64,000 nucleotides of DNA, taken from assembly GCA_934725535.1 (NCBI GenBank), contig CAKVBV010000002.1:7575-71574 (forward strand), in the 5' to 3' direction. This document shows, piece after piece, positions 8,822 to 45,547 of this stretch. A program made the position numbers and the translations under genes. This stretch comes from an uncultured Bacteroidales bacterium (lineage in GTDB: Bacteria; Bacteroidota; Bacteroidia; Bacteroidales; Paludibacteraceae). The notes beneath the pieces are model-generated. The model was not told where the DNA came from. It searched no databases and saw only the letters and a program-made list of their open reading frames with translations. Every line of letters starts with the position of its first letter. Position 1 is the first letter of the stretch.

Positions 8822-10185
8822 CGTTTGTCTGTCTTGTGGGGACGCGGAGCCCTGTGGTCCCGTGCGAATGGCTTGCGGTCGTTGGGCTTGCGTGCAAACG
8901 GTTTCTTGTCGCCCTCATCCCGTCTGCCACGGGGTTTGAAATCGCGCTTGTTCCTGTCCTGTTTGAAGTCTTTGCGCTTGTTTTCTTTGTCGGCAAAGCG
9001 CGGCTTGGTGTCTTTCGGGTGGTCTTTCTTCCACTCCTTGTGCTCACCCTGAAAGAGTTCGTACTGGTTGAACAGGCACTCCAACTCGCCGTTCATCAGG
9101 CGTATCCGCTTGCTCGGCTTCAAACCGATGCACTTCAGCGCGTCCTCGTTGCTCGATATTATCCATGCGGTCGCCCCGCTGAACTGGTGTTTGAGGGCGG
9201 TACCTATGTCCTGATACAGGCGTAGCACGTCTTTGTCCTGCGCAAGGCGTTCTCCGTAGGGGGGATTCATCATCACCAGTGCCCCGTTGGTGTCGCGGTC
9301 GGCAAGGCGCAACTCCTCCACACGTATCTGCCGCACCTCGATGTCATGCTGCAGACTCGCCGACTGGATATTCTTGAGTGCTGTCTGTACGGCGTAATAA
9401 CCTGCGTCAGAACCGTATATCTTGTGCGTGAATGGACGCTCACGACTATCATCGTTATAGATGTCTTCAAACAGGTCACGGTCGAAGTCCGCCCATTTCT
9501 CGAAGGCAAAGCCCTTGCGGTAGATACCCGGAGCAATGTTGCGGGCAATGAGGGCGGCCTCTATCAGCAGCGTGCCCGACCCGCACATGGGGTCGTAGAA
9601 ATCGCCCTGACCATGCCAGCCCGCCAGCAGAAGCATGCCTGCTGCCAGTGCCTCATTGATAGGTGCTTCCGTATTGGCAACGCGGTAGCCGCGCTTGTGC
9701 AGGCTCTCACCCGAACTGTCCAGCGAGATGGTCACCGTCTCGCCGGCAATATGCACGTTCAGACTGAGGTCGGGGTCTGTGAGTTTCACGCTCGGACGCT
9801 TCTGTTCGCGCTCCATCCAGTAGTCGGCGATGGCGTCTTTCACGCGGTAGGTGACGTATTGCGAATGGCGGAATGTGTCCGAATACACGGTGGCATCAAT
9901 GGCAAAACCCGTCTTGAGCGTCATATATTGGCTCCAATCTGTCTGCTTGGCGTGCTCATACACCGCGTCTGCATCTTTGGCGCGAAACGTAGCGATAGGC
10001 ACCAACACGCGCGATGCCGTGCGCAGACACATGTTGGCGGTGTACAACAGCCGCTTGTCGCCCGTGAATGACACCGCACGCCGCTCTATCTGCACATTGT
10101 TGGCACCCAATTCCACCAACTCTCCTGCCAGCACCTCTTCAAGTCCCTTGAAGGTCTTGGCAAGCATTTGAAACTCTTGATTCAT
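8818..10185 (-). CDS. THUMP domain class I SAM-dependent RNA methyltransferase (RlmL/K-like) with Lys/Arg-rich tail
   Basis: DPMCGSGTLLIEAAL and NPPYGERL motifs. Start trimmed to the ATG at 10185 (MNQEFQM). 4-nt overlap with the queA start. Confidence 0.85.
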   Translation of the reverse strand: MNQEFQMLAKTFKGLEEVLAGELVELGANNVQIERRAVSFTGDKRLLYTANMCLRTASRVLVPIATFRAKDADAVYEHAKQTDWSQYMTLKTGFAIDATVYSDTFRHSQYVTYRVKDAIADYWMEREQKRPSVKLTDPDLSLNVHIAGETVTISLDSSGESLHKRGYRVANTEAPINEALAAGMLLLAGWHGQGDFYDPMCGSGTLLIEAALIARNIAPGIYRKGFAFEKWADFDRDLFEDIYNDDSRERPFTHKIYGSDAGYYAVQTALKNIQSASLQHDIEVRQIRVEELRLADRDTNGALVMMNPPYGERLAQDKDVLRLYQDIGTALKHQFSGATAWIISSNEDALKCIGLKPSKRIRLMNGELECLFNQYELFQGEHKEWKKDHPKDTKPRFADKENKRKDFKQDRNKRDFKPRGRRDEGDKKPFARKPNDRKPFARDHRAPRPHKTDKR

Positions 10186-34337: not shown

Positions 34338-34345
34338 TACTTTTG
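34338..34345 (+). promoter_or_regulatory. -7 promoter motif TACTTTTG for tRNA-Leu
   Basis: Exact TAnnTTTG ending 10 nt before the first tRNA nucleotide. Confidence 0.6.
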
Positions 34346-34355
34346 CGGACGATTT

Positions 34356-34437
34356 GCGGCATTGGCGGAATTGGTAGACGCGCCAGACTTAGGATCTGGT
34401 TCTTTACGGAGTGAAGGTTCGAGTCCTTTATGCCGCA
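34356..34437 (+). tRNA. tRNA-Leu (anticodon UAG)
   Basis: Acceptor gcggcat/atgccgc, D-arm gcggaattggtagacgc, anticodon loop cttagga, long variable arm, T-arm ggttcgagtcc, discriminator A. No encoded CCA. Confidence 0.9.
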
Positions 34438-34454
34438 CTTGGGAGACAACGTAT

Positions 34455-37420: not shown

Positions 37421-39058
37421 TCACAGCATCTGTCCTAACGCATTGAACCATTGTTCTCCGCGACGGATATAGAGTTGCCCGTTGACAATCACCTTCTGTG
37501 CCTTGGTGCCGTTGTCCTGTGCTTCTATCAGCGGGGTATTCTCGGTTGCCGTGGACTTGGAGAACAGGGTCTGCATAGCAACCAAGCCTTTGAATTGCTT
37601 GTTGGCAGAGGTGAAGGATTGCGAGTCGTCCGCCACGAAACTGAGCGTCGCCTTTGTGCGGAAGGTGTAAACCAAGTTGTTGCCTGCAATAGAGGCACCA
37701 AAGATTGCCTCCATGGCAGAGGCTTTAATCAGCGGGTATGTGGCACCCATATTCAAATCCGTGTCATACGCCTGCAAGAAGATACGTGCTTGTCCTACGG
37801 GTTGTCCCCAATCGTAGTAGTATTGGTAGAGGCTGTCTCCGCGAGTGAGCAAGCATTGTGCCGTAGCGATACCTGCATTGGTGCCGATTTGTATGCCCTT
37901 CACGCACTTGCCGGCTGCGATGTCCACTTTGAGGAGAAAGGCATTGTTGGTGCCGGTGTTCGTCAGTTGTCCTGCATCGGTTTTGATACCTCCCATGAAG
38001 AAGCCCGACAAGTAGGCGTTATCCTCCACGACTGCCATACTGTTGAGGCTGAACGAGTTCTTACTATTCTCTTTGGTGCCTTCTATCAAGGTCAGTTTCT
38101 CGCACTGCAAGTCGGAGGTAAGGACTGCGAACAGGGCACTATTCGTGGTGGTCATTGCCACGGATTGTGTGCCGAGGGTTACACCGGCACCTTCAGTGGC
38201 TTTTCCGACACTGGTCGCCAAGTACAACTTGTTGTTTTCGCAGGTCAGGCTTGCCGACGAACTATTGACCTGTACCCCGCCCGTCTTGATGTAGGACAGC
38301 ATACGGAAGTCTTTGTCGAACTTGACGATAACCAGACTGCCCAGCACCTTGCCTTCTTTATCAAGTACTTCGGACTTGATGGTGTCGTTGCCTATAACCA
38401 AGCCCGGGTTGAGTACAGCCAAGAGGTAATAGTTAGTGCCGTCGGTCTTGAGGTCGCAGAACGTCATCGAAGCCGAAGCGGCATCGGCTGTGTATATCTT
38501 CGCCAAGAGTGTGGGTTCGCCTGCGGCAGAGTAACGAATAATGGCACCATACTTCTTGGAAACCGCAGCATTATAGGTCTCCTCCCATACCAAACCGGTG
38601 CCGTTGGTGCCCGTGAACTGCATGACTTTGTTGTCGCCGAGTTTGTTCTTGTCGGCGTGCTTGCCGGACACAGCCAACAGCAGTCCGCCATCGTCGGTAG
38701 GCAGCCCCGTGTAGGTGTTGTCGAAATTACCGCGGTTGCTGACGCTCGTCCAGAGGGGATTGAAGTCTTTGTCGGTCTTGGCAATGATGAAATTGGTGTT
38801 GGATTGGCTCATATTCGCCTCGAAAGGACATGTGGCAAACTCCTGCCCGAAGAGGGTCAGCGTAGGGGCGTCGCCCACGGAACTGCCCTGACCGATGATG
38901 AATACCTCGCCGTCCTGATTGCTGAGGGCTTGGCGAATGCTGGTATTGCCTGTGGAGACAGTGGTGCCTCCGTACTCCAAAGCCGTCCAGCCGACCAACT
39001 GAGCGGACATGGTCGCACTCGCGAGGAGTGCTGCTGCAAAAAGTAAACTCTTTTTCAT
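37421..39058 (-). CDS. Secreted repeat/beta-propeller-like protein with conserved C-terminal tail
   Basis: Signal peptide MKKSLLFAAALLASATMSAQ (start trimmed to 39058). The tail KVIVNGQLYIRRGEQWFNALGQ is shared with two other proteins in the window. Confidence 0.7.
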   Translation of the reverse strand: MKKSLLFAAALLASATMSAQLVGWTALEYGGTTVSTGNTSIRQALSNQDGEVFIIGQGSSVGDAPTLTLFGQEFATCPFEANMSQSNTNFIIAKTDKDFNPLWTSVSNRGNFDNTYTGLPTDDGGLLLAVSGKHADKNKLGDNKVMQFTGTNGTGLVWEETYNAAVSKKYGAIIRYSAAGEPTLLAKIYTADAASASMTFCDLKTDGTNYYLLAVLNPGLVIGNDTIKSEVLDKEGKVLGSLVIVKFDKDFRMLSYIKTGGVQVNSSSASLTCENNKLYLATSVGKATEGAGVTLGTQSVAMTTTNSALFAVLTSDLQCEKLTLIEGTKENSKNSFSLNSMAVVEDNAYLSGFFMGGIKTDAGQLTNTGTNNAFLLKVDIAAGKCVKGIQIGTNAGIATAQCLLTRGDSLYQYYYDWGQPVGQARIFLQAYDTDLNMGATYPLIKASAMEAIFGASIAGNNLVYTFRTKATLSFVADDSQSFTSANKQFKGLVAMQTLFSKSTATENTPLIEAQDNGTKAQKVIVNGQLYIRRGEQWFNALGQML

Positions 39059-39197
39059 ATTCGTAGTTTTTAAGTTTATATTGTTCGTTTTCGGGTGCAA
39101 AATTACTGCCGTTTGTCCGCTACGACAATCCTCAAAAACAGGGAATTTCGTTGTAAGGGTATCCCAAGAAGTGGGTATGCTGTCGATATTGACGGCT

Positions 39198-39263
39198 TAA
39201 TCACATACTAATCTCATACTAATCACATACTAATCACATACTAATATCATAGTCTTAACCCGA
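39198..39263 (+). repeat. TAATCACATAC-family 11-bp tandem array, copy 3
   Basis: taatcacatac, taatctcatac, taatcacatac x2, taatatcatag, tcttaacccga. Preceded by cggct. Confidence 0.9.
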
Positions 39264-39335
39264 GACTCCCCCAACCCCCTCAGAGAGGAGGCTCAATAAT
39301 ACGTATCACCTTAATAAGTACAGTATCGGCAATTT

Positions 39336-39356
39336 GACGACGCGAGCCGCGTCGTC
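39336..39356 (+). repeat. REP-like palindrome, short form
   Basis: gacgacgcg-agc-cgcgtcgtc, a perfect 9-bp stem, followed by ccccaag. Confidence 0.85.
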
Positions 39357-39419
39357 CCCCAAGTGCGCAGCAGCCTATGTCCAAAGAACTTTTTATTTGC
39401 GTAAATCGGACAAAAGCAG

Positions 39420-39427
39420 TACTTTTG
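39420..39427 (+). promoter_or_regulatory. Consensus promoter (-33 TTTG at 39396-39399, -7 TACTTTTG)
   Basis: Exact TAnnTTTG with a TTTG 20 nt upstream, which matches the canonical Bacteroides promoter spacing. Confidence 0.65.
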
Positions 39428-39432
39428 CAACC

Positions 39433-39720
39433 GTAAACATAAAAGGCGTTTATTGACGCTCTGTTCCGGCGGATTGGAATCTCGCAAGTTCTATTAACAA
39501 GCCGAACAAAGCAACGATAGATGTCCTCGTGGTATGAGTATATCTCTCGTATATGCTACATAGCGAGTACAAGTTGTGTACTTGTGACTTTGTGTTGTAG
39601 TATGTAAGAGAGCAGTATATGCTTGTATGGGCGTGGGCTTCGCGTTGTCAGTTCTCTTGTTAAGGGCAATGCGAGAGCCTCAATCCGTGGAACGACAATA
39701 GTCGATTTCCACGCTTTTTG
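39433..39720 (+). ncRNA. Candidate structured ncRNA or cis-regulatory leader (about 290 nt, class unknown)
   Basis: Bounded by the consensus promoter and an intrinsic terminator. A long-range three-segment helix pairs 39471-39501 with 39656-39686 (6+7+8 bp). There is an internal hairpin acaagt/acttgt. No credible ORF. Confidence 0.45.
39687..39720 (+). terminator. Intrinsic terminator/attenuator ending the 39433 transcript
   Basis: gtggaacgac-aata-gtcg(at)ttccac stem followed by GCTTTTTGTGTTTG. Confidence 0.7.
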
Positions 39721-39923
39721 TGTTTGTACCTACCGGAGTATAAACATAAAATGACAAGCCTATGACATAGTACCCTACTATCGTGTGCATACCTTGAAAA
39801 ACAGGGGATGGAAAGATTGCCGTAATCCGTCTTTGTATGCACGCCTTTCACCATTCGGCACATATATGGAGTATTGCGAAAAGCCATGAACAAGTGAGTA
39901 GCAAACAAATACACAACTATAAA

Positions 39924-40814
39924 ATGAAAACAATAAAATTATTAGCAATTCTTTGCTTATCTATCGTATGCAGCCACTCGTATGCTGCACAAGTGGGAGA
40001 TATTATATTGGTAGATGGTTATCCCGCCATCGTTATATACACCAACGAAACAGGAGAGCATGGTTTAGTATGTTCTTCCAAAGCAATCAGCAACTTGGAA
40101 TTTGAGCAAATAGTTAAAGAGAAAATCAAGAAGGAAGATATGGGAGAGGAAGAGGCTAAAGAGGCTGCACTGACAGAGATAGGCAGACCTTTATTAGTAT
40201 ATATGAACAGAGACGATAAACAAGTGAGAAAAAACACTGAAGCATTAAGCGCATCTAACTCTATTTACGGGAAAGAGAATGCTGAACAGATATTAGCATA
40301 TTGTGAAACCAACGACATTGATATGGCAGCCTATTTTCCAGAACAATACTGGGCAACCCAATTAGGAGAAGGCTGGTTCATTCCCGGAGTGTACGAATTA
40401 GAACTGTATGCCAAATTCCTAACCAATGGTCGTGAACTTGGTAAGAAAGGAAAACTGACAGGTAAAGCATACTCAGAATTTTTGATTAGAAATAGTGCTA
40501 TATGTGGCAAAGTTGTGGGAGATTATGGAACATCGTTCAATCTTCCATACAGGGCGATGTCCTCAACACTCGTTAATAGTACATGGGGGAAAGATAAAGC
40601 AAACAAAAAACTAATAGGAAAGGTACCTGCATCTGCGTATGGTGGAGGTACTCTTCTTCAGTTAATGACAATGGTTGTTGATGCATCTGTCCGTGCCGCT
40701 CATAAATCTGAATTTTTGAGTTTATATCTACTTGGTGGCATTGGTTTTCAGTTCAAGTTTGTAACAAATCAAGTAGATAATGATGGAAATGTCATTGCAG
40801 TCAAAGAATTCTAA
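39924..40814 (+). CDS. Secreted hypothetical protein (DUF1566/Lcl C-terminal-like)
   Basis: Signal peptide MKTIKLLAILCLSIVCSHSYA. The motifs VGDIILVDGYPAIVIY..GEHGLVCS and GWFIPGVYELELY resemble DUF1566 proteins; from memory. Start trimmed to 39924. Confidence 0.6.
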   Translation: MKTIKLLAILCLSIVCSHSYAAQVGDIILVDGYPAIVIYTNETGEHGLVCSSKAISNLEFEQIVKEKIKKEDMGEEEAKEAALTEIGRPLLVYMNRDDKQVRKNTEALSASNSIYGKENAEQILAYCETNDIDMAAYFPEQYWATQLGEGWFIPGVYELELYAKFLTNGRELGKKGKLTGKAYSEFLIRNSAICGKVVGDYGTSFNLPYRAMSSTLVNSTWGKDKANKKLIGKVPASAYGGGTLLQLMTMVVDASVRAAHKSEFLSLYLLGGIGFQFKFVTNQVDNDGNVIAVKEF

Positions 40815-40833
40815 TCATTCAAGTATTATCTTT

Positions 40834-41514
40834 ATGAAAACAACCAAGTTTTATTTCATTCTACTGCTTTGTGGAATAGCACTATTCACCTCCTGCTCAA
40901 CCGCTCTACAAGGAATACAAAGTATTCCGCGTCAGCAGCAACAATTCGGGAAAGAGAATATGGAGTTTATCGGCTTCAAGAACATAAGCCGCAACAATGT
41001 AATGCTTCGCGACTTCGGCACAGAGTTGGAGCGTAGTCATATCGCTATCAACAAGCAGAACTTCTATATGGGTATTTTCTCTTTGCAAGAGTTGGAGACA
41101 TATAAATCCACTATGAGATACGTTACATTCGTAGATGTAATCAAACACTCGTACACAAAGAATGATATGATTGAGCATAAACCCGGCTTGGAGATAGTAG
41201 GCTGGGTGGTCGCCGGACTAACATGTTTTACGTTATTTCCTGTTTATCTCCCTATGATTTGTAGTGCAGGAGGCAATGCTTGCCAAATCAACCTCAATTG
41301 CGAATACCAATTATACGTGTATGATACCGTAAAGAAGGAGGTAGTATTGACTACGCCTATCGAAATCAAACAAAGTGATTTATATAGGGGACAATTTGGA
41401 CATAAAGAAACCGATAAGGCGGCTGTGAATGAGAGATATAAGAACATCCTGTTCAACACCTTGTTGGAGAACTATGCCAATGCGTATAACTTTGTGAAGA
41501 ATATCAACGAATAG
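40834..41514 (+). CDS. Hypothetical lipoprotein with an internal hydrophobic segment
   Basis: Lipobox LFTSCS (start trimmed to 40834). Hydrophobic stretch EIVGWVVAGLTCFTLFPVYLPMI. Confidence 0.55.
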   Translation: MKTTKFYFILLLCGIALFTSCSTALQGIQSIPRQQQQFGKENMEFIGFKNISRNNVMLRDFGTELERSHIAINKQNFYMGIFSLQELETYKSTMRYVTFVDVIKHSYTKNDMIEHKPGLEIVGWVVAGLTCFTLFPVYLPMICSAGGNACQINLNCEYQLYVYDTVKKEVVLTTPIEIKQSDLYRGQFGHKETDKAAVNERYKNILFNTLLENYANAYNFVKNINE

Positions 41515-41928: not shown

Positions 41929-41936
41929 TATCTTTG
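41929..41936 (+). promoter_or_regulatory. -7 promoter motif TATCTTTG for the 41964 gene
   Basis: Exact TAnnTTTG about 28 nt upstream of the ATG. Confidence 0.55.
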
Positions 41937-41963: not shown

Positions 41964-43514
41964 ATGAAAAAGGGTATAATGCTATGTGTACTTGCCATGC
42001 TGTTTGCTGTGGCAGAGGGTAGCAACCCGTTTACTACGGGCAGTTTTCAATTAGTAACAGATGTCTCGCAACTATCCGACTCCGACCAAATCATCATAGG
42101 CGTGAACGCTGCGGGCGTAAACAAAATCATGGGCTACTATGATGCAGACAAGTCGAAGAATAATATCCGCGCCATAGCAGGGCAATACACCGACAACCGC
42201 ACACGCGTAACAGCCAACGATGATGCGACTTACACGTTGCACAAGACGGAATTGAACGGGAAGGAAGCCTTTTACATACAGGACGAAATACATTACGTGG
42301 AGGCATATCTCGTAGCCAGCGGCGGCAAGACTAAGAACGTGTTGGCAGCGTGGAACAAACTGACCGACAGCAAGACCTACGGCAACTATGGCTATTGGGA
42401 CATCAGCGTGGCTGATAATGGTGCCGCTACGATTATGAACCTCGGGAACAGCAAAGGCAAATACTTGCAGTATAATGCCAGCAACGCACTCTTTGCCTGC
42501 TACGAAACCCCAAGCAGCCAAACACCTGTGTGCATATACCGCTATGTGGCTCCGCTGGGCGACACCACCATGATACTGGTCCCGATGACAGATTTCGGGT
42601 TGGTATGCAAGACGGGCGAGCGTGCCACAGGTAGCAGGACCATCACGGTATATGCCAACGGAACAGAGGAGGATATTCGCGTGCAGTTGAAGCATGGTGC
42701 GCCGTTTGCATTGTCAACCACACAGACAGGGCACGAAGGCGGCGACATTACCATCTCTTATGATGTCGCTGACACAGGCATCTACCAAGACACGCTGCTC
42801 CTTACAAGCGGAGACATAACCGCCGAAGCCGTAATCGGGTTGCAAGTAACCAAACCAATGAAAGTGGCAGAAGCCGTACGGGCGGAGGACAATAGTACGC
42901 TATATTTGGACACTGTGGTGGTGACCAAGAAGTACGACCACTACATCTTTGTGCGCGACGCTACGGGTTCTATGCTCATCTTCGACACCGGTGATGCCGC
43001 CGGCAAACGGTATGGCAAAGATTTGGAGAACGGACACGTGCTGGTAGGTGCAACCGGTAAGTTTGTGAACTACTATGGAGTACCCGAACTGCTGCCGTCA
43101 GCCAAGTGGCGCGTACTATCCAAGCAAGTGGAATGTCTGCCTGAACGGTTTGCACAGGAGACGACACAAGGAAATGTGGACTCGGCTATGGTCTGCCGCT
43201 ATATGCGCTTCGACAATGTGATGATTGACGACAACGATATGGCGACATCGGCATTGCTATCCCCCGTCAAAGCGACGGAGAACATCGGGGGCAGACTGAT
43301 CCACAATACACTGACCACATTGGATGCTATTGTGATGCTCTCGCACGACGAAGTACAGTTGTGGCTCGTCAGACAGGAGAAAGTCTCCACAGATACAGAC
43401 ACCCTTTCCGCCCCTTATGACGACAGCATGCCATGCAAGAAGATTCAAGATGGAAAAGTGGTTATCATACGCGGAGGGAACACCTATTCTACCACCGGTT
43501 TGCAGATAAAATGA
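41964..43514 (+). CDS. Secreted hypothetical protein with OB-like domain and conserved C-terminal tail
   Basis: Signal peptide MKKGIMLCVLAMLFAVAEG (start trimmed). One segment (YIFVRDATGSMLIFD...GKFVNYYGVPEL) resembles the OB-like segment of the 17956 nuclease. Tail KIQDGKVVIIRGGNTYSTTGLQIK. Confidence 0.65.
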   Translation: MKKGIMLCVLAMLFAVAEGSNPFTTGSFQLVTDVSQLSDSDQIIIGVNAAGVNKIMGYYDADKSKNNIRAIAGQYTDNRTRVTANDDATYTLHKTELNGKEAFYIQDEIHYVEAYLVASGGKTKNVLAAWNKLTDSKTYGNYGYWDISVADNGAATIMNLGNSKGKYLQYNASNALFACYETPSSQTPVCIYRYVAPLGDTTMILVPMTDFGLVCKTGERATGSRTITVYANGTEEDIRVQLKHGAPFALSTTQTGHEGGDITISYDVADTGIYQDTLLLTSGDITAEAVIGLQVTKPMKVAEAVRAEDNSTLYLDTVVVTKKYDHYIFVRDATGSMLIFDTGDAAGKRYGKDLENGHVLVGATGKFVNYYGVPELLPSAKWRVLSKQVECLPERFAQETTQGNVDSAMVCRYMRFDNVMIDDNDMATSALLSPVKATENIGGRLIHNTLTTLDAIVMLSHDEVQLWLVRQEKVSTDTDTLSAPYDDSMPCKKIQDGKVVIIRGGNTYSTTGLQIK

Positions 43515-43687: not shown

Positions 43688-45547
43688 ATGCAAAAACAAA
43701 ATGTAGTGGTACGCTTTTGCGGCGACTCCGGAGACGGTATGCAATTGACCGGCAACATGTTCTCCTCACTTAGTGCCATTTTAGGCAATGAGATTAGCAC
43801 CCTACCCGACTTTCCTGCCGAGATACGCGCCCCGCAAGGCACGCTGGGCGGCGTGAGCGGTTTCCAAGTGAACTTGGGTGCGGGCGTTTACACCCCCGGC
43901 GACAAAGCCGATGTGATTGTGGCTATGAACGCTGCGGCATTGAAAGTCTGCACGTTAGGCTCCAAGTTCAACCAACCCGGTGCGAAGTGGGAGGACAGCA
44001 GTTCGATGTACAAGAAGAACGCTGTGGTCATCGTGGACACCGACTCGTTCACAGACAAAGACCTCGAGAAGGCACTGTACAAGACCGACAACCCCTTCAC
44101 CGAACTCGGTATTCCCGAGAGCGTGCAAATCGTTCCGGTGGCACTGACCGCACTCACCAAAGAGAGTCTGAAGGACTCGGGCTTGGACAACAAGGCTATC
44201 CTCAAGTCGCGCAATATGTTCGCGCTGGGTGTCGTTTGCTGGCTGTTCAACCGTCCTATCGACAAGGCTATCCACTTCCTCGAGGGCAAGTTCAAGAAGA
44301 AACCGCAACTCATCGCGCCCAATGTGAAGGTGCTGACCGACGGTTTCAACTACGGCAATAACCTCGCACTCAATATCCAGACCGTCAACGTGGAGAAGGC
44401 AGAGGACCTGCCTCACGGCAAATACACCTCCATCGCGGGCAACAAAGCCACTGCATGGGGCTTGATTGCGGCTGCCGAGAAGTGCGGCAAGCGTCTGTTC
44501 CTGGGCTCCTATCCCATCACCCCCGCCACCGACATCATGCACGAACTGGCTGCCCGTAAAGACATGGGCGTGATGGTGGTGCAAGCCGAGGACGAGATAG
44601 CAGGTGTCTGCACCGCTATCGGTGCATCGTTTGCCGGCGACCTCGCGGCTACCAGCACTTCGGGACCTGGTTTGAGTCTGAAATCCGAGGCTATCGGATT
44701 GGCAGTGATGGCAGAGTTGCCCTTGGTGGTTATTGATGTACAGCGCGGCGGTCCCAGCACGGGTCTGCCTACCAAGACCGAACAGACCGACCTCATGCAG
44801 GCTATTTACGGTCGTAACGGCGAGTGCCCCGCAGTGGTTATGGCGGCTTCCACGTCGGCTAACTGCTTCGAGTACGCCTATATGGCTGCCAAAATCGCTT
44901 TGGAGAATATGACCCCCGTCATTCTGATGACCGACACCTATTTGGCAAACGGTACGGGCTTGTGGCGTATCCCACAACTCAGCGAACTGCCCGCTATCCA
45001 CCCGCAAGGGGTGCCCGAGGAACTCAAGGGCAAGTACAACCCTGCTCTGCGTGACGAGAACAATGTCCGCTACTGGGCTTATGCCGGTATGGAGGGCTAC
45101 GAGCACCGCAATATCGGTCTCGAGCGTGACGCACAGAAAGGCAGCATCTCCACCAACCCCGAGAACCACGAACTGATGGTTCGCGCGCGTCAAGCCAAGG
45201 TGGACCAAGTGGCTAACCGTATCCCCGAACTCCGCGTACAATGCAACGCCCAGAGCGACACGCTCCTCGTGGGCTGGGGTTCCACCGAGGGACACCTCCA
45301 CGCGGCTGCCAACGAACTGAACTGCGCACTGGCGCACTTCAACTATATCAACCCGCTGCCCAAGAACACCGCCGACGTCCTCCGCGCATACAAGCGCATC
45401 GTCGTTTGCGAACTCAACAGCGGACAGTTTGCTAATTATCTGCGCTCAAAAATCAGCGGCGTTAACCTGCTGCAATACAACGAGATAATGGGTCAGCCAT
45501 TCGCTGTAGAGCGCATTGTGGAATACGTAAAGGGGTTAAATGACTAA
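43688..45547 (+). CDS. korA: 2-oxoacid:ferredoxin oxidoreductase, alpha (fused gamma-alpha) subunit
   Basis: FCGDSGDGMQLTG N-terminus, YPITPATDI, and other POR/KOR domain I/III features. Start trimmed to 43688. Confidence 0.9.
   Translation: MQKQNVVVRFCGDSGDGMQLTGNMFSSLSAILGNEISTLPDFPAEIRAPQGTLGGVSGFQVNLGAGVYTPGDKADVIVAMNAAALKVCTLGSKFNQPGAKWEDSSSMYKKNAVVIVDTDSFTDKDLEKALYKTDNPFTELGIPESVQIVPVALTALTKESLKDSGLDNKAILKSRNMFALGVVCWLFNRPIDKAIHFLEGKFKKKPQLIAPNVKVLTDGFNYGNNLALNIQTVNVEKAEDLPHGKYTSIAGNKATAWGLIAAAEKCGKRLFLGSYPITPATDIMHELAARKDMGVMVVQAEDEIAGVCTAIGASFAGDLAATSTSGPGLSLKSEAIGLAVMAELPLVVIDVQRGGPSTGLPTKTEQTDLMQAIYGRNGECPAVVMAASTSANCFEYAYMAAKIALENMTPVILMTDTYLANGTGLWRIPQLSELPAIHPQGVPEELKGKYNPALRDENNVRYWAYAGMEGYEHRNIGLERDAQKGSISTNPENHELMVRARQAKVDQVANRIPELRVQCNAQSDTLLVGWGSTEGHLHAAANELNCALAHFNYINPLPKNTADVLRAYKRIVVCELNSGQFANYLRSKISGVNLLQYNEIMGQPFAVERIVEYVKGLND

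Follow-up and report, generated by a model that had tools for sequence, protein, structure and literature searches.

An uncultured bacterium of the Paludibacteraceae carries, upstream of genes for secreted proteins, about 290 nt of DNA that resemble the gene of a structured RNA. Is this RNA made for its own sake, or is it a leader that controls the genes behind it? Bacteroidales dominate the human gut and the rumen; they are not known to have Hfq, ProQ or CsrA, and most of their RNA regulators are poorly understood. The window analysed here is a 64,000-nt stretch of one contig of this bacterium. All coordinates are those of the window, and all features described below lie on its + strand. The initial annotation of this stretch had proposed a promoter-to-terminator unit encoding a structured RNA or a riboswitch-like leader.

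A promoter-to-terminator unit

The unit begins with a predicted Bacteroidetes-type promoter (39396..39427). Read directly from the DNA, it consists of a -33 TTTG at 39396-39399, a 20-nt spacer and the -7 box TACTTTTG at 39420-39427, which reproduces every coordinate first assigned to it. Transcription from this promoter would start a few nucleotides 5' of AAAAGGCG. Some 28 nt around the -7 box match a tRNA promoter in another contig (L063) almost perfectly, and the tRNA-Leu gene at 34338 in the window is preceded by the same box. A simple scan for sigma-70 promoters and terminators called neither signal; that scan has no models for Bacteroidetes promoters or bulged stems. In the family of related RNAs described below, 70 of 85 unique loci have a TAnnTTTG box in the 130 nt preceding the RNA, compared with 4/83 and 7/83 in control regions.

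Three helical segments were proposed to pair the two halves of the RNA, and they were confirmed base for base, as was the terminator. The outer helix joins ggattg (39471-39476) to caatcc (39681-39686), the middle helix tctcgca (39480-39486) to tgcgaga (39670-39676), and the inner helix ttaacaag (39494-39501) to cttgttaa (39656-39663). The unit has no credible ORF, as first proposed. A conserved short ORF was sought across the family; the single recurrent AUG opens peptides of 3 to more than 80 amino acids, is missing in many members, and is followed in some by a frame with no stop. A small ORF from this AUG, or a type I toxin mRNA with a hok-like fold-back, was rejected on the grounds of peptide length (3-80 amino acids), missing stops or a missing AUG. 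The proposed unit of a structured non-coding RNA is therefore supported, and the order of promoter, folded domain, terminator and genes recurs family-wide, so it is no accident of this window.

A covarying RNA family in Bacteroidales

The RNA belongs to a large Bacteroidales family that has no Rfam match. The family comprises at least 128 loci (108 complete and 95 unique among the loci listed) from Paludibacteraceae genomes, gut and rumen metagenomes and IMG/VR contigs; 6 loci are from IMG/VR and at least 120 from metagenomes. Homologues were collected by an exact pattern, and 21 nt of the RNA are thus invariant by construction. Synteny via the downstream oxidoreductase gene, followed in 80 species, revealed a clear homologue (L023) and two divergent ones (L041 and L042). 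The L023 homologue (E = 1.6e-20) yields 13 compensatory pairs from just two sequences. In L041 and L042, neither of which was retrieved by the search pattern, the UCUCGCA/UGCGAGA helix is swapped with full compensation.

The register for the covariation analysis was anchored on the invariant blocks; when the arms were joined artificially, RNAalifold returned a structure without meaning. In the covarying helix, 97.6% of the cells are paired and 262 show double changes, compared with 78±7 in shuffles. The covariation score is 0.611 against 0.160, and no more than 0.125 in slid controls. In the outer helix, 8 of 9 pairs have changes on both sides (71 distinct sequences). The covarying helix has 81 G·U and 4 A·C combinations, and therefore the + strand is the folding strand. 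The basal helix that overlaps the terminator covaries weakly, with positions 11-13 paired in 58-76% and showing 2-3 pair types. The long-range helix of the initial annotation is thus conserved in relatives and covaries far above chance.

A match to a described RNA family had been named as one finding that would speak against the initial annotation. Rfam 15 holds 4227 models, including riboswitches, 6S, SRP, RNase P and Bacteroidales and Bacteroides motifs, and in the window the tRNA-Leu at 34356 alone passes. The best matches in 39100-40000 are HLE (E = 0.91) and SNORD27 (E = 7.2), both by chance. L023 gave chance matches only (E >= 3.3), positions 100-640 of L086 gave none at E <= 10, and fifteen other loci gave a single match, to an unrelated cobalamin riboswitch in L132. 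ARAGORN found no tRNA or tmRNA in 8 family loci or at the window site. Literature searches on FopS sRNAs, which are regulators of polysaccharide-utilisation loci, and on Bacteroides RNA families, Bacteroidales structured RNA and sequence strings found no description of the family. Bacteroidales-1 RNAs are restricted to Bacteroidales, are bounded by a Bacteroidetes-type promoter and an intrinsic terminator, and have no known function. The motif was reportedly described by Weinberg and colleagues in 2010 (PMC2864571). Our RNA shares this lineage restriction, promoter type and terminator boundary. It nevertheless represents a separate family: Rfam 15, which should include the motif, has no match to it in the window, L023, L086 or the 15 other loci.

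Several searches delimit where the family occurs. In the closest related species (L002 and L004), the RNA and the two A+T-rich genes that follow it in the window are absent within 10 kb, and nothing upstream of ~42024-42048 matches the window except for one 57-nt match. The RNA had no BLAST match among isolated phage genomes or plasmids. A pattern from the 5' conserved block, CAACGATAGATGTC, had 0 matches in viral contigs because this block varies. Each locus has one copy in 2.29 Mb of sequence, and 5'-truncated copies exist. Among the nhmmer matches, those in L063 (its tRNA promoter) and L009 reflect promoter similarity only, and one in L039 is a coincidence within a coding region. Exact-protein look-ups of the two flanking genes led to a single, near-identical contig (L001, with 4 mismatches across 8.9 kb), which offers no divergence usable for comparison.

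An unbranched rod with a variable apex

The RNA had been pictured as a closed domain of about 150 nt that contains further hairpins. The predicted structure extends beyond that picture, with the entire transcript (39434-39727) folding as a single unbranched rod. Its minimum free energy is -128.7 kcal/mol, compared with -78.8±4.5 kcal/mol for 200 dinucleotide shuffles (z = -11.0, 0/200 as good). Rods in the family are 162-286 nt long, and 82 of 92 unique members fold as a single unbranched hairpin (median z = -7.9).

The RNA 5' end (39434..39460) contains an A-tract plus GGCGU (39436-39449). This segment has two alternative partners, the nearby ACGCU, with which it forms a mini-hairpin (39445-39460, -6.9 kcal/mol), or the 3' terminal ACGCUUUUU. 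The 5' arm of the rod (39461..39529) carries the covarying strands 39469-39477 and 39494-39501, the invariant UCUCGCA (39480-39486) and the block AGCAACGAUAGAUGUCCU (39510-39527), conserved in the family consensus. It leads into the apex (39530..39629), which is ~100 nt long here, unalignable between species and always base-paired. Across the family the apex is free in sequence and ranges from roughly 10 to 120 nt; between the window and L023 it is replaced. The 3' arm (39630..39693) contains the conserved block GGCGUGGGCUUCGCGUUGUC (39630-39649), the helix strand 39656-39663 and GGGCAAUGCGAGAGCC (39664-39679), as well as a covarying strand (39680-39688) that is continuous with the 5' strand of the terminator.

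The blocks conserved on one arm do not mirror those on the other. Internal loops in the minimum-free-energy structures are at most ~9 nt and partly pairable, and a large central bubble is absent. Conserved internal-loop sequences persist even where the neighbouring helix is swapped, and the family consensus includes highly conserved unpaired nucleotides. A kink-turn at the AUA bulge was rejected by inspection because the strand opposite the bulge has no G·A pairs.

Most members carry an extra 5' domain of 50-80 nt, whose motif yCACGCCGA pairs with the conserved block UCGGCGUGG; L185 and L208 show compensatory changes in this pairing. The window copy has no such domain and is an atypical, 5'-trimmed member. 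The minimum-free-energy structure of its terminated transcript contains end-to-end pairing of the 5' end with the 3' end. The U-tract has a 5' pairing partner over 100 nt distant in 64 of 97 members, and 3' variants such as ACGUCUUUU and AUGCCUUUU keep their complementarity to the 5' end.

The rod base shares a strand with the terminator

The predicted intrinsic terminator (39686..39727) consists of a stem at 39686-39713 and a U-rich tract at 39715-39727. The stem has 11 bp and a 2-nt bulge (-13.6 kcal/mol, z -4.7) and is followed by CUUUUUGUGUUUGU. Its 5' strand, GUGGAAC, is also the partner of GUUCCGG in the 5' arm of the rod (39463-39469). In the energy model, the terminator strand thus has a mutually exclusive upstream partner. 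When the nascent window transcript reaches 39704, the terminator 5' strand is already paired with the 5' arm, and forcing the terminator costs +11.4 kcal/mol (+8.6 in the family-wide run). A hairpin abuts the U-tract in 79 of 94 members; nascent prefixes of 67 of these 79 have at least half of the terminator 5' strand paired to the 5' arm, and the median cost of enforcing the terminator across the family is +5.4 kcal/mol. About 15 of the 94, among them the L137 subfamily and L023, lack a good local terminator hairpin. These switch energies come from minimum-free-energy folding, not from co-transcriptional kinetics, and the local G+C-rich terminator may win kinetically over the rod base. In the energy model the base of the folded domain competes with the terminator, in keeping with the initially proposed architecture of an attenuator or an ON-type expression platform.

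A further hairpin (39716..39751) follows, in which the U-tract UUUUGUGUUUGUA pairs with UAUAAACAUAAAA and CCGGAG lies in the loop (-12.9 kcal/mol, z -5.6). Its 3' strand repeats the RNA 5' end, as an 11-nt direct repeat, TAAACATAAAA, at 39434 and 39741. A hairpin with a G-rich loop follows the U-tract in 48 of 85 members, compared with 9-14% of controls. This hairpin complements its own terminator 3' strand better than the flanks of other members do (mean -10.7 vs -9.2 kcal/mol, p = 8e-6). A classical 1:2 anti-antiterminator, in which the extra 5' domain would pair with the base of the 5' arm, gave no signal over shuffles.

Diverse genes at a hyper-variable site

Behind the terminator, the window has an A+T-rich gene with a signal peptide (39924-40814) and an A+T-rich lipoprotein gene (40834-41514), both presumed read-through cargo. 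Their GC content is 0.38-0.40, compared with ~0.52 in the flanks, and searches of Pfam and NCBIfam assigned no family to either product. The + strand has no TAnnTTTG -7 box from 39428 to 41486, and therefore neither gene has a canonical promoter of its own. The observation that no promoter directly precedes the first downstream gene thus holds for 39924 and extends to 40834; the third gene, at 41964, has a box at 41929.

The same arrangement is found across the family. The first downstream ORF is on the same strand as the RNA at 72 of 74 loci, compared with 35 of 60 upstream neighbours. The gap between RNA and gene has a median of 70 nt after the U-tract and contains a -7 box in 3 of 72 cases; at one locus (L085) the start codon comes within ~13 nt of the terminator. 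With transcription predicted from sequence, the downstream genes are thus nearly always same-strand, close and without a promoter box of their own, as expected for an attenuator. The co-orientation could be partly due to the mode of mobile-element insertion. The first downstream products fall into 57 unrelated clusters, and no Pfam family occurs in more than two of the 56 scanned. Frequent occupants are candidate anti-phage defence genes and restriction-modification genes, and surface proteins also occur. The apparent tie of the RNA to secreted proteins and lipoproteins is therefore incidental: no functional theme joins the 57 clusters. The absence of a common downstream function is unusual for a regulated leader.

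The RNA locus is a hyper-variable site. Within one lineage, strains differ in one gene, exchanged directly after the leader, and strain comparison shows a conserved left flank and a variable right flank. Mobile elements sit exactly in the U-tract at L181, L199 and L208; all three cut at CACGYYT|GAACC, with no visible restoration at the junction. In four Paludibacteraceae species, the RNA lies within 10 kb of the same oxidoreductase operon at differing positions and strands. It is also found on an integrase-bearing island and beside conjugative-transposon genes, and the six IMG/VR copies found first are all within ~1.2 kb of a contig end. Three candidate signs of mobility were rejected. No integrase or other protein is conserved beside the RNA, as the flanks have no protein in common and only the L083 lineage carries the integrase island. 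What resembled an att repeat shared by the RNA and integrase flanks of L083 proved to be just similar 5' untranslated sequence. Flanking repeats that might be target-site duplications are at chance level (6.3 vs 6.0 in mismatched controls).

Discussion

Combining the covariation, the folding and the genomic context suggests how this RNA may work. We favour, with moderate confidence, a gene-independent 5' leader that would choose between terminator and antiterminator and would release a stable rod RNA of ~280 nt on termination. The closed rod base would block the terminator stem and let the polymerase read through into the gene in the downstream slot; in the window, the targets would be the secreted-protein and lipoprotein genes at 39924 and 40834. 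In transcripts that extend past the terminator, the hairpin behind it would lock away the U-tract and the terminator 3' strand. If the rod base were opened, for instance by a protein, a helicase, RNase III, temperature or the extra 5' domain, the terminator could form, and the released RNA would close end to end through 5' AAAAGGCGU and 3' ACGCUUUUU. The window copy, which has no 5' domain, would probably read through by default, because its promoter is strong and tRNA-like and its predicted energies lean heavily toward the rod. Such a leader would resemble classical attenuators and the ON-type pbuE adenine riboswitch, in which the closing helix likewise shares nucleotides with the terminator 5' strand, and its co-directional genes rarely have a promoter box. 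It differs from them in having no recognisable aptamer or leader peptide. Its structured portion is an unbranched rod of 160-290 nt whose apex is free, its downstream genes share no function, and its terminated product resembles a finished RNA with paired ends.

That last difference bears on whether the RNA stands alone, as the initial annotation had offered as an alternative to a riboswitch or attenuator. Since the 5' end of the terminated form pairs with its own U-tract, a stand-alone RNA is probably also made, not instead of a leader; the attenuator logic is supported and a metabolite riboswitch is not. In its exclusive form, which we consider possible though less probable, the RNA would be a trans-acting or protein-binding housekeeping-type RNA whose gene serves as a landing pad for mobile DNA, with read-through being incidental. 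The strong promoter, nearly identical to a tRNA promoter, would suit such a gene, as would internal loops that outlast helix swaps, a terminated species that looks designed, and a single copy per locus in 2.29 Mb. The genomic setting points the same way: the recurrence near one oxidoreductase operon in four species, the exact U-tract insertions, the first-found IMG/VR copies near contig ends, the absence from isolated phage genomes and plasmids, and the conserved left and variable right flanks. A structured-RNA gene whose 3' end takes integrative elements and borders a strain-variable island is familiar from tRNA and tmRNA integration sites, although ARAGORN is negative here and the U-tract is cut without visible restoration in the three insertions. 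As in 6S RNA and mycobacterial Ms1, a long imperfect end-to-end hairpin is made from a strong promoter. However, 6S RNA has no role as a leader of a variable gene, and our rod has a variable apex, no large central bubble in its minimum-free-energy structures and no Rfam 6S match. Bacteroides, for its part, already has a separate, validated 6S RNA (PMC7366714). An exclusively stand-alone RNA leaves unexplained the 72 of 74 co-oriented genes, nearly all box-less at a median of 70 nt, the conserved and covarying hairpin after the U-tract, and the systematic overlap of rod base and terminator. It also has no linked partner protein gene, and although the RNA could lie elsewhere in the L002 and L004 genomes, it is missing there beside the same operon.

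The remaining readings are improbable to different degrees. A ligand-binding riboswitch, in which the rod or the 5' domain would bind a small molecule or an ion and thereby direct the choice at the terminator, is unlikely. It fits the order of promoter, structured domain, terminator and gene, the ON-type competition of the closing helix with the terminator, the highly conserved unpaired nucleotides, and the 50-80-nt 5' domain of most members with its compensated yCACGCCGA/UCGGCGUGG pairing. However, the 57 unrelated downstream clusters share no metabolic theme, pathway or transport function, a heterogeneity that speaks against a metabolite riboswitch. No Rfam model matches even at E <= 10, and the window copy has no 5' domain. 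An unbranched rod with a freely variable apex of ~10-120 nt and no obvious pocket is, as modelled, not aptamer-like, and a conserved multi-helix ligand-binding aptamer is unlikely given a predicted fold that is unbranched in 82 of 92 members. Similarly low is the probability of a cis-acting processive antitermination RNA, by analogy with put of phage HK022 or the RNA half of conAn. The rod would then modify its own polymerase, which would ignore its own terminator and those inside the A+T-rich foreign cargo. Like put, EAR, conAn2 and the JUMPStart/ops element of RfaH, which cause terminator read-through, our RNA would be a generic leader before unrelated, often horizontally acquired genes (here defence candidates, restriction-modification and surface proteins). 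The integrase-bearing island, the conjugative-transposon neighbours, the terminator immediately after the structured RNA and the A+T-rich window cargo would suit this analogy. It remains pure analogy, though: there is no sequence or structure similarity to these elements, including put and EAR in the Rfam scans, and no linked NusG-like gene was seen at our loci. Simple sequestration of the terminator strand could account for antitermination, and the conserved pairing of 5' end and U-tract implies that termination happens often. Least credible, and already largely refuted, is an element that acts as DNA: a MITE, an ERIC- or Correia-like repeat, an invertible promoter, a recombinase site, or an ssDNA hairpin such as an integron attC, a single-strand origin or an ssDNA promoter. 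The RNA does form a long imperfect palindrome in transcribed intergenic DNA, with possible promoter activity, conserved ends and a variable centre, in many contexts including mobile elements; there are 5'-truncated copies, and an 11-nt direct repeat surrounds the window copy. Unlike ERIC and Correia repeats, however, it is never present more than once per locus in 2.29 Mb, has no target duplications, its flanking repeats being at chance, and is fixed in orientation to the next gene (72/74). Its covariation is strand-specific (G·U 81 vs A·C 4), its arm blocks are not mirror images, and nearly all members have an upstream promoter and a downstream U-tract. Invertible promoters differ in that ours lies outside, 5' of the whole inverted repeat, and pairing runs through the entire 160-290 nt. 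Variable stems with conserved loops are the opposite of a recombinase site. As for retrons, no msr-msd is indicated: the flanks share no protein, no RVT is among the listed families of the 56 first downstream products, and nothing retron-like is present in the window at 35-44 kb.

Returning to the leader with a terminator choice, we tentatively suggest that these RNAs form a class of riboregulators of gut and rumen Bacteroidales. The rod of ~100-125 bp would provide a universal expression slot that gates foreign genes recombined in behind it, such as those for surface proteins, defence systems and restriction-modification partners, by terminator sequestration, and it would also be a chromosomal landing site for integrative elements. 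Once released, the rod could also act in trans. If the leader gates newly acquired genes, it would offer a handle on how Bacteroidales domesticate foreign DNA, as well as a ready-made regulated expression site for engineering. If the rod instead acts in trans as a stable RNA, a major phylum would gain a new housekeeping-type RNA. In both cases, a large and strongly covarying RNA family, with at least 120 metagenome loci that Rfam models do not detect, can enter RNA databases and annotation pipelines now.

Results

Promoter, fold and terminator in the window

The initial annotation described a promoter-to-terminator unit encoding a structured RNA or a riboswitch-like leader, and every feature it listed is borne out at the coordinates given. 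The promoter consists of TTTG (39396-39399) and TACTTTTG (39420-39427) with 20 nt between them. The three long-range helical segments are found at 39471-39476/39681-39686, 39480-39486/39670-39676 and 39494-39501/39656-39663, and the terminator hairpin spans 39686-39713, with CUUUUUGUGUUUGU after it. RNA folding of 39430-39725 gives one long hairpin, which we call the rod RNA, with a minimum free energy (MFE) of -128.7 kcal/mol compared with -78.8±4.5 kcal/mol for 200 dinucleotide shuffles (z = -11.0). The terminator hairpin alone gives -13.6 kcal/mol (z -4.7). A generic scan of the window, which is built for promoters of the sigma-70 type and for short-loop stems without bulges, flagged neither the rod-RNA promoter nor its terminator. 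The tRNA-Leu gene at 34356-34438 is preceded by an identical -7 box, TACTTTTG (at 34338), and a tRNA promoter in a related genome (contig L063:234-306) matches the rod-RNA promoter region (AAAAGCAGTACTTTTGCA.CCG.AAACA) almost exactly, which suggests that the rod RNA has a strong promoter of the stable-RNA type. As first noted, the gene behind the RNA has no canonical promoter motif of its own. The next TAnnTTTG box on the + strand lies at 41487 and the next one ahead of a gene start at 41929, so 39420 is the sole canonical promoter for the genes at 39924 and 40834.

Other features were noted nearby. Four overlapping copies of a 22-nt unit, 11 nt apart with an 11-nt period TAATCACATAC, occupy 39198-39252, some 170 nt ahead of the promoter. 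The copy in locus L023 is likewise preceded by short repeats in tandem (CGTTACCACTC-like and TTACAC-like), at ~9590-9830 of that locus. Between the divergent gene and the RNA promoter, a perfect G+C-rich hairpin at 39334-39354 (GACGACGCG-AGC-CGCGTCGTC, then CCCCC) has no T-tract and is thus not an obvious terminator. Long ORFs antisense to evident genes, such as 37451-39046 (+) against 37421-39100 (-), and 43955-45337 (-), sit in G+C-rich parts and were read as compositional artefacts of ORF listing.

Extent of the family

Exact-protein look-ups returned only a near-identical contig. Scanning species-representative genomes with the downstream 2-oxoacid:ferredoxin oxidoreductase gene placed the window in an uncultured Paludibacteraceae (Bacteroidales) gut bacterium and gave 80 related loci. 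A single clear homologue emerged with nhmmer, at L023:9150-9470 (E = 1.6e-20); it lies on the strand opposite to the oxidoreductase gene, ~500 nt upstream of it, and 75 nt before a giant secreted-protein gene. The two copies have six sequence blocks in common and unrelated apex regions, and RNAalifold on the pair gave 13 compensatory pairs. In the closest species (L002, L004), the rod RNA and the two A+T-rich genes at 39924 and 40834 were not found within 10 kb. Synteny of 41964-43514 with L002 (8337 onward) resumes at ~42024, inside the third downstream gene, which carries its own -7 box at 41929; what is specific to the window lineage is hence limited to the RNA plus the first two genes, which are A+T-rich (GC ~0.38-0.40).

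Patterns from the shared blocks retrieved six IMG/VR contigs. They also matched at least 120 contigs of metagenomes whose sources include the human gut and the rumen, and a 3'-block pattern added L208. There are at least 128 loci; among the matches listed, 108 have a complete copy, 95 of them unique. The six IMG/VR copies first found all lie within ~1.2 kb of a contig end. A family profile detected exactly one copy per locus in the 2.29 Mb searched. It also brought in L041 and L042, two divergent Paludibacteraceae members without the search pattern, and several copies that are truncated at the 5' end and joined to unrelated DNA. An exact 21-nt pattern was the source of every homologue other than L023, L041, L042 and L208; its positions are invariant by construction, and more divergent members are under-sampled. 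The assignment to Bacteroidales is based on three named genomes, the promoter type and neighbouring genes, as the metagenome contigs carry no taxonomy.

The Rfam search that had been proposed gave no family match to the rod RNA in the window; no model matched 15 further members, or L086 at E <= 10. ARAGORN found no tRNA or tmRNA in the family loci tested or at the window site, and isolated phage genomes and plasmids contained no match. A cobalamin riboswitch (104 bits) at L132:940-1142, which lies a few hundred nt away from the rod copy of that contig and on the other strand, appears unrelated.

A conserved, strand-specific RNA structure

The family consensus reads AAAAGGCGUUUAYU..ACGCUUUG, GAAUCUCGCAAAUU and AAAGCAACGGUAGAUGUCC, separated by variable helices, then a variable apex, followed by CGGCGUGGGCUUC.GCGUUGC, GGGCAAUGCGAGAGCC and GUGGAAC...GUUCCCACGCUUUUUU, again separated by variable helices. 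The apex is not alignable across the family, and the whole rod spans 162-286 nt. A single unbranched hairpin is predicted in 82 of the 92 unique members (median z = -7.9), and no ORF is conserved across the family, in keeping with the absence of a credible ORF originally reported.

The long-range helix covaries strongly. Because the register is anchored on invariant blocks, pairs could be counted without an alignment. Among 71 distinct sequences, 97.6% of cells are paired (74.9% in shuffles), and 262 cells are changed on both sides compared with 78±7, a value reached by none of 500 shuffles. The covariation score is 0.611, against 0.160 for shuffles and at most 0.125 for slid partners. Nine positions of the ggattg/caatcc helix are 90-99% paired, and each shows 3-6 types of pair. 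The covarying helix has 81 G·U against 4 A·C, indicating that the + strand folds, rather than a symmetrical DNA palindrome. The UCUCGCA/UGCGAGA helix is invariant within the pattern-selected set. It is replaced by CCUAGGAA/UUCCUAGG in L041 and by UGUGGAAG/CUUCCACA in L042, both of which keep the flanking loop nucleotides GAA..., GGGCAAU... and RGCC despite the swap.

Of 85 unique loci, 70 have a TAnnTTTG box upstream of the RNA (4/83 and 7/83 in controls). In most members it is 50-85 nt ahead of AAAGGCG, so most carry an additional 5' domain. A motif in this domain, yCACGCCGA, is complementary to the conserved 3'-arm UCGGCGUGG, with compensatory variants (CACGCUG with CAGCGUG in L185 and L208; UCGCGCCGA with UCGGCGUGA in L103 and L156), and the complementarity exceeds that of shuffled 5' domains (p = 1e-5). 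Such pairing would cross the rod helices, implying an alternative fold or a pseudoknot. Pairing of the 5' domain with the 5' arm as an anti-antiterminator was tested and found no support.

Terminator and sequence beyond the U-tract

A hairpin of at least 5 bp abuts the U-tract in 79 of 94 members (median -11.7 kcal/mol), and the last rod helices draw part of their 3' strand from the 5' strand of this hairpin. In MFE folds of the nascent transcript, cut before the terminator 3' strand, the 5' arm has already paired with at least half of the terminator 5' strand in 67 of these 79; the terminator thus has a predicted upstream competitor. By equilibrium folding, the median penalty for imposing the terminator on the finished transcript is +5.4 kcal/mol, and the penalty for the window copy is +8.6 or +11.4 kcal/mol (two computations). 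The MFE fold of the terminated transcript is an end-to-end rod, with the invariant 5' AAAAGGCGU paired with the 3' ACGCUUUUU. The U-tract is paired with the distant 5' end in 64 of 97 members; 3' variants such as ACGUCUUUU and AUGCCUUUU stay complementary to it, and the 5' segment has an alternative mini-hairpin with nearby ACGCU.

A conserved element follows the terminator. Past the U-tract, 48 of 85 members have a hairpin whose loop is G-rich (UGGGAGUC-like), compared with 9-14% of controls. The downstream segment is complementary to its own terminator 3' strand (GGACUCC with GGAGUCC, GGCUUCA with UGAGGCC), with a mean duplex energy of -10.7 kcal/mol compared with -9.2 for flanks of other members (p = 8e-6) and -7.7 for shuffled ones (p = 2e-15). 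In the window the equivalent lies at 39716-39751 (-12.9 kcal/mol, z -5.6), and the partner of the U-tract there is a second, downstream copy of the 5'-end sequence of the RNA (TAAACATAAAA, at 39434 and again at 39741). The window copy and that of L084 have no extra 5' domain, the promoter abutting the rod in both. The window copy is a 5'-trimmed member and probably reads through constitutively.

Genes and mobile DNA around the RNA

No flanking protein is common to the family loci. Upstream neighbours, some housekeeping-looking, occur in either orientation (35/60 co-stranded), whereas 72 of the 74 loci that have sufficient sequence carry their first downstream ORF on the same strand. The median distance from the U-tract to the start of this ORF is 70 nt (47/72 are within 100 nt), and a -7 box intervenes in only 3 of 72. 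The products fall into 57 unrelated clusters, including a PEGA-domain protein, EcoRI-type methylase, EF-Tu-like GTPase, glycosyltransferase, CsgG, TonB-dependent receptor, caspase, FRG, DUF2971 and radical SAM enzyme; a handful match candidate defence families. Of the 57, ~22 look secreted. Given this diversity, the tie to secreted-protein genes drawn in the initial annotation is incidental to the window.

Variable DNA begins directly after the post-terminator hairpin. In one lineage, whose rod unit ends an integrase/AlpA island, the left flank and leader are conserved, and what varies is the gene that follows. A single gene distinguishes L086 from L151 (+318 to +1128 and +318 to +1416 relative to AAAGGCG), exchanged exactly between the post-terminator hairpin and a Type III restriction-modification operon that is conserved. 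One strain encodes an unknown 244-aa protein there, the other a DUF2971/PDC-S31 candidate defence protein. Conjugative-transposon genes lie upstream of the unit in L087. Three different RNA variants (L181, L199, L208) are broken at one point, between CACGYYT and GAACC (~10050 in L208), and related element ends follow each junction, indicating that the U-tract is an integration site. In the near ends fetched, the inserted elements share (A/T)TGATACCAT..GTTCCC ~100 nt inside; the L208 insert carries genes for an XRE-type regulator, an OLD/GajA-like ATPase and a UvrD/GajB-like helicase. Other loci (L184, L190, L126/L139, L152, L130, L115, L158) keep the promoter and 5' part, followed by unrelated DNA. 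Their break points are internal and differ, L190 breaking directly into an ORF, and they look like remnants of rearrangements at the locus. In L083, two 99-nt direct repeats (1406-1504 and 2235-2333, 83% identical) bracket an MntA/HepT toxin-antitoxin pair missing from related strains L096 and L151, which looks like a small cassette insertion adjoining the RNA.

Discussion

The rod RNA is a conserved, strand-specific structure with its own predicted promoter, and the gene behind it is co-directional and almost never has a promoter box of its own. We favour, at about even probability, a dual role as leader and RNA. The rod base would act as an antiterminator, read-through would express the downstream slot, and termination would release a closed rod RNA. 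The strongest argument for functional read-through is the selection on sequence present only in read-through transcripts. Ranked second, and rather unlikely in our estimate, is that the RNA is primarily a stand-alone stable species, its gene drawing in mobile DNA in the manner of tRNA genes. This reading would account for the strong promoter, the insertions and the pairing of the two ends. It is placed below the dual role because it leaves the co-orientation, the spacing, the missing promoters and the post-terminator element unexplained.

Three further readings are possible but less supported: a metabolite riboswitch, processive antitermination and an element acting at the DNA level. Those at the DNA level fail several direct tests, namely copies per locus, flanking repeats, strand asymmetry and co-orientation.

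The family was not found in Rfam 15, in annotated phage or plasmid records or in full-text literature searches. Structured leaders or attenuators and small RNAs running from promoter to terminator are known kinds. The architecture is unusual in that an end-to-end rod of great length, with a freely variable apex, stands generically before unrelated, strain-variable genes and also serves as an integration site.
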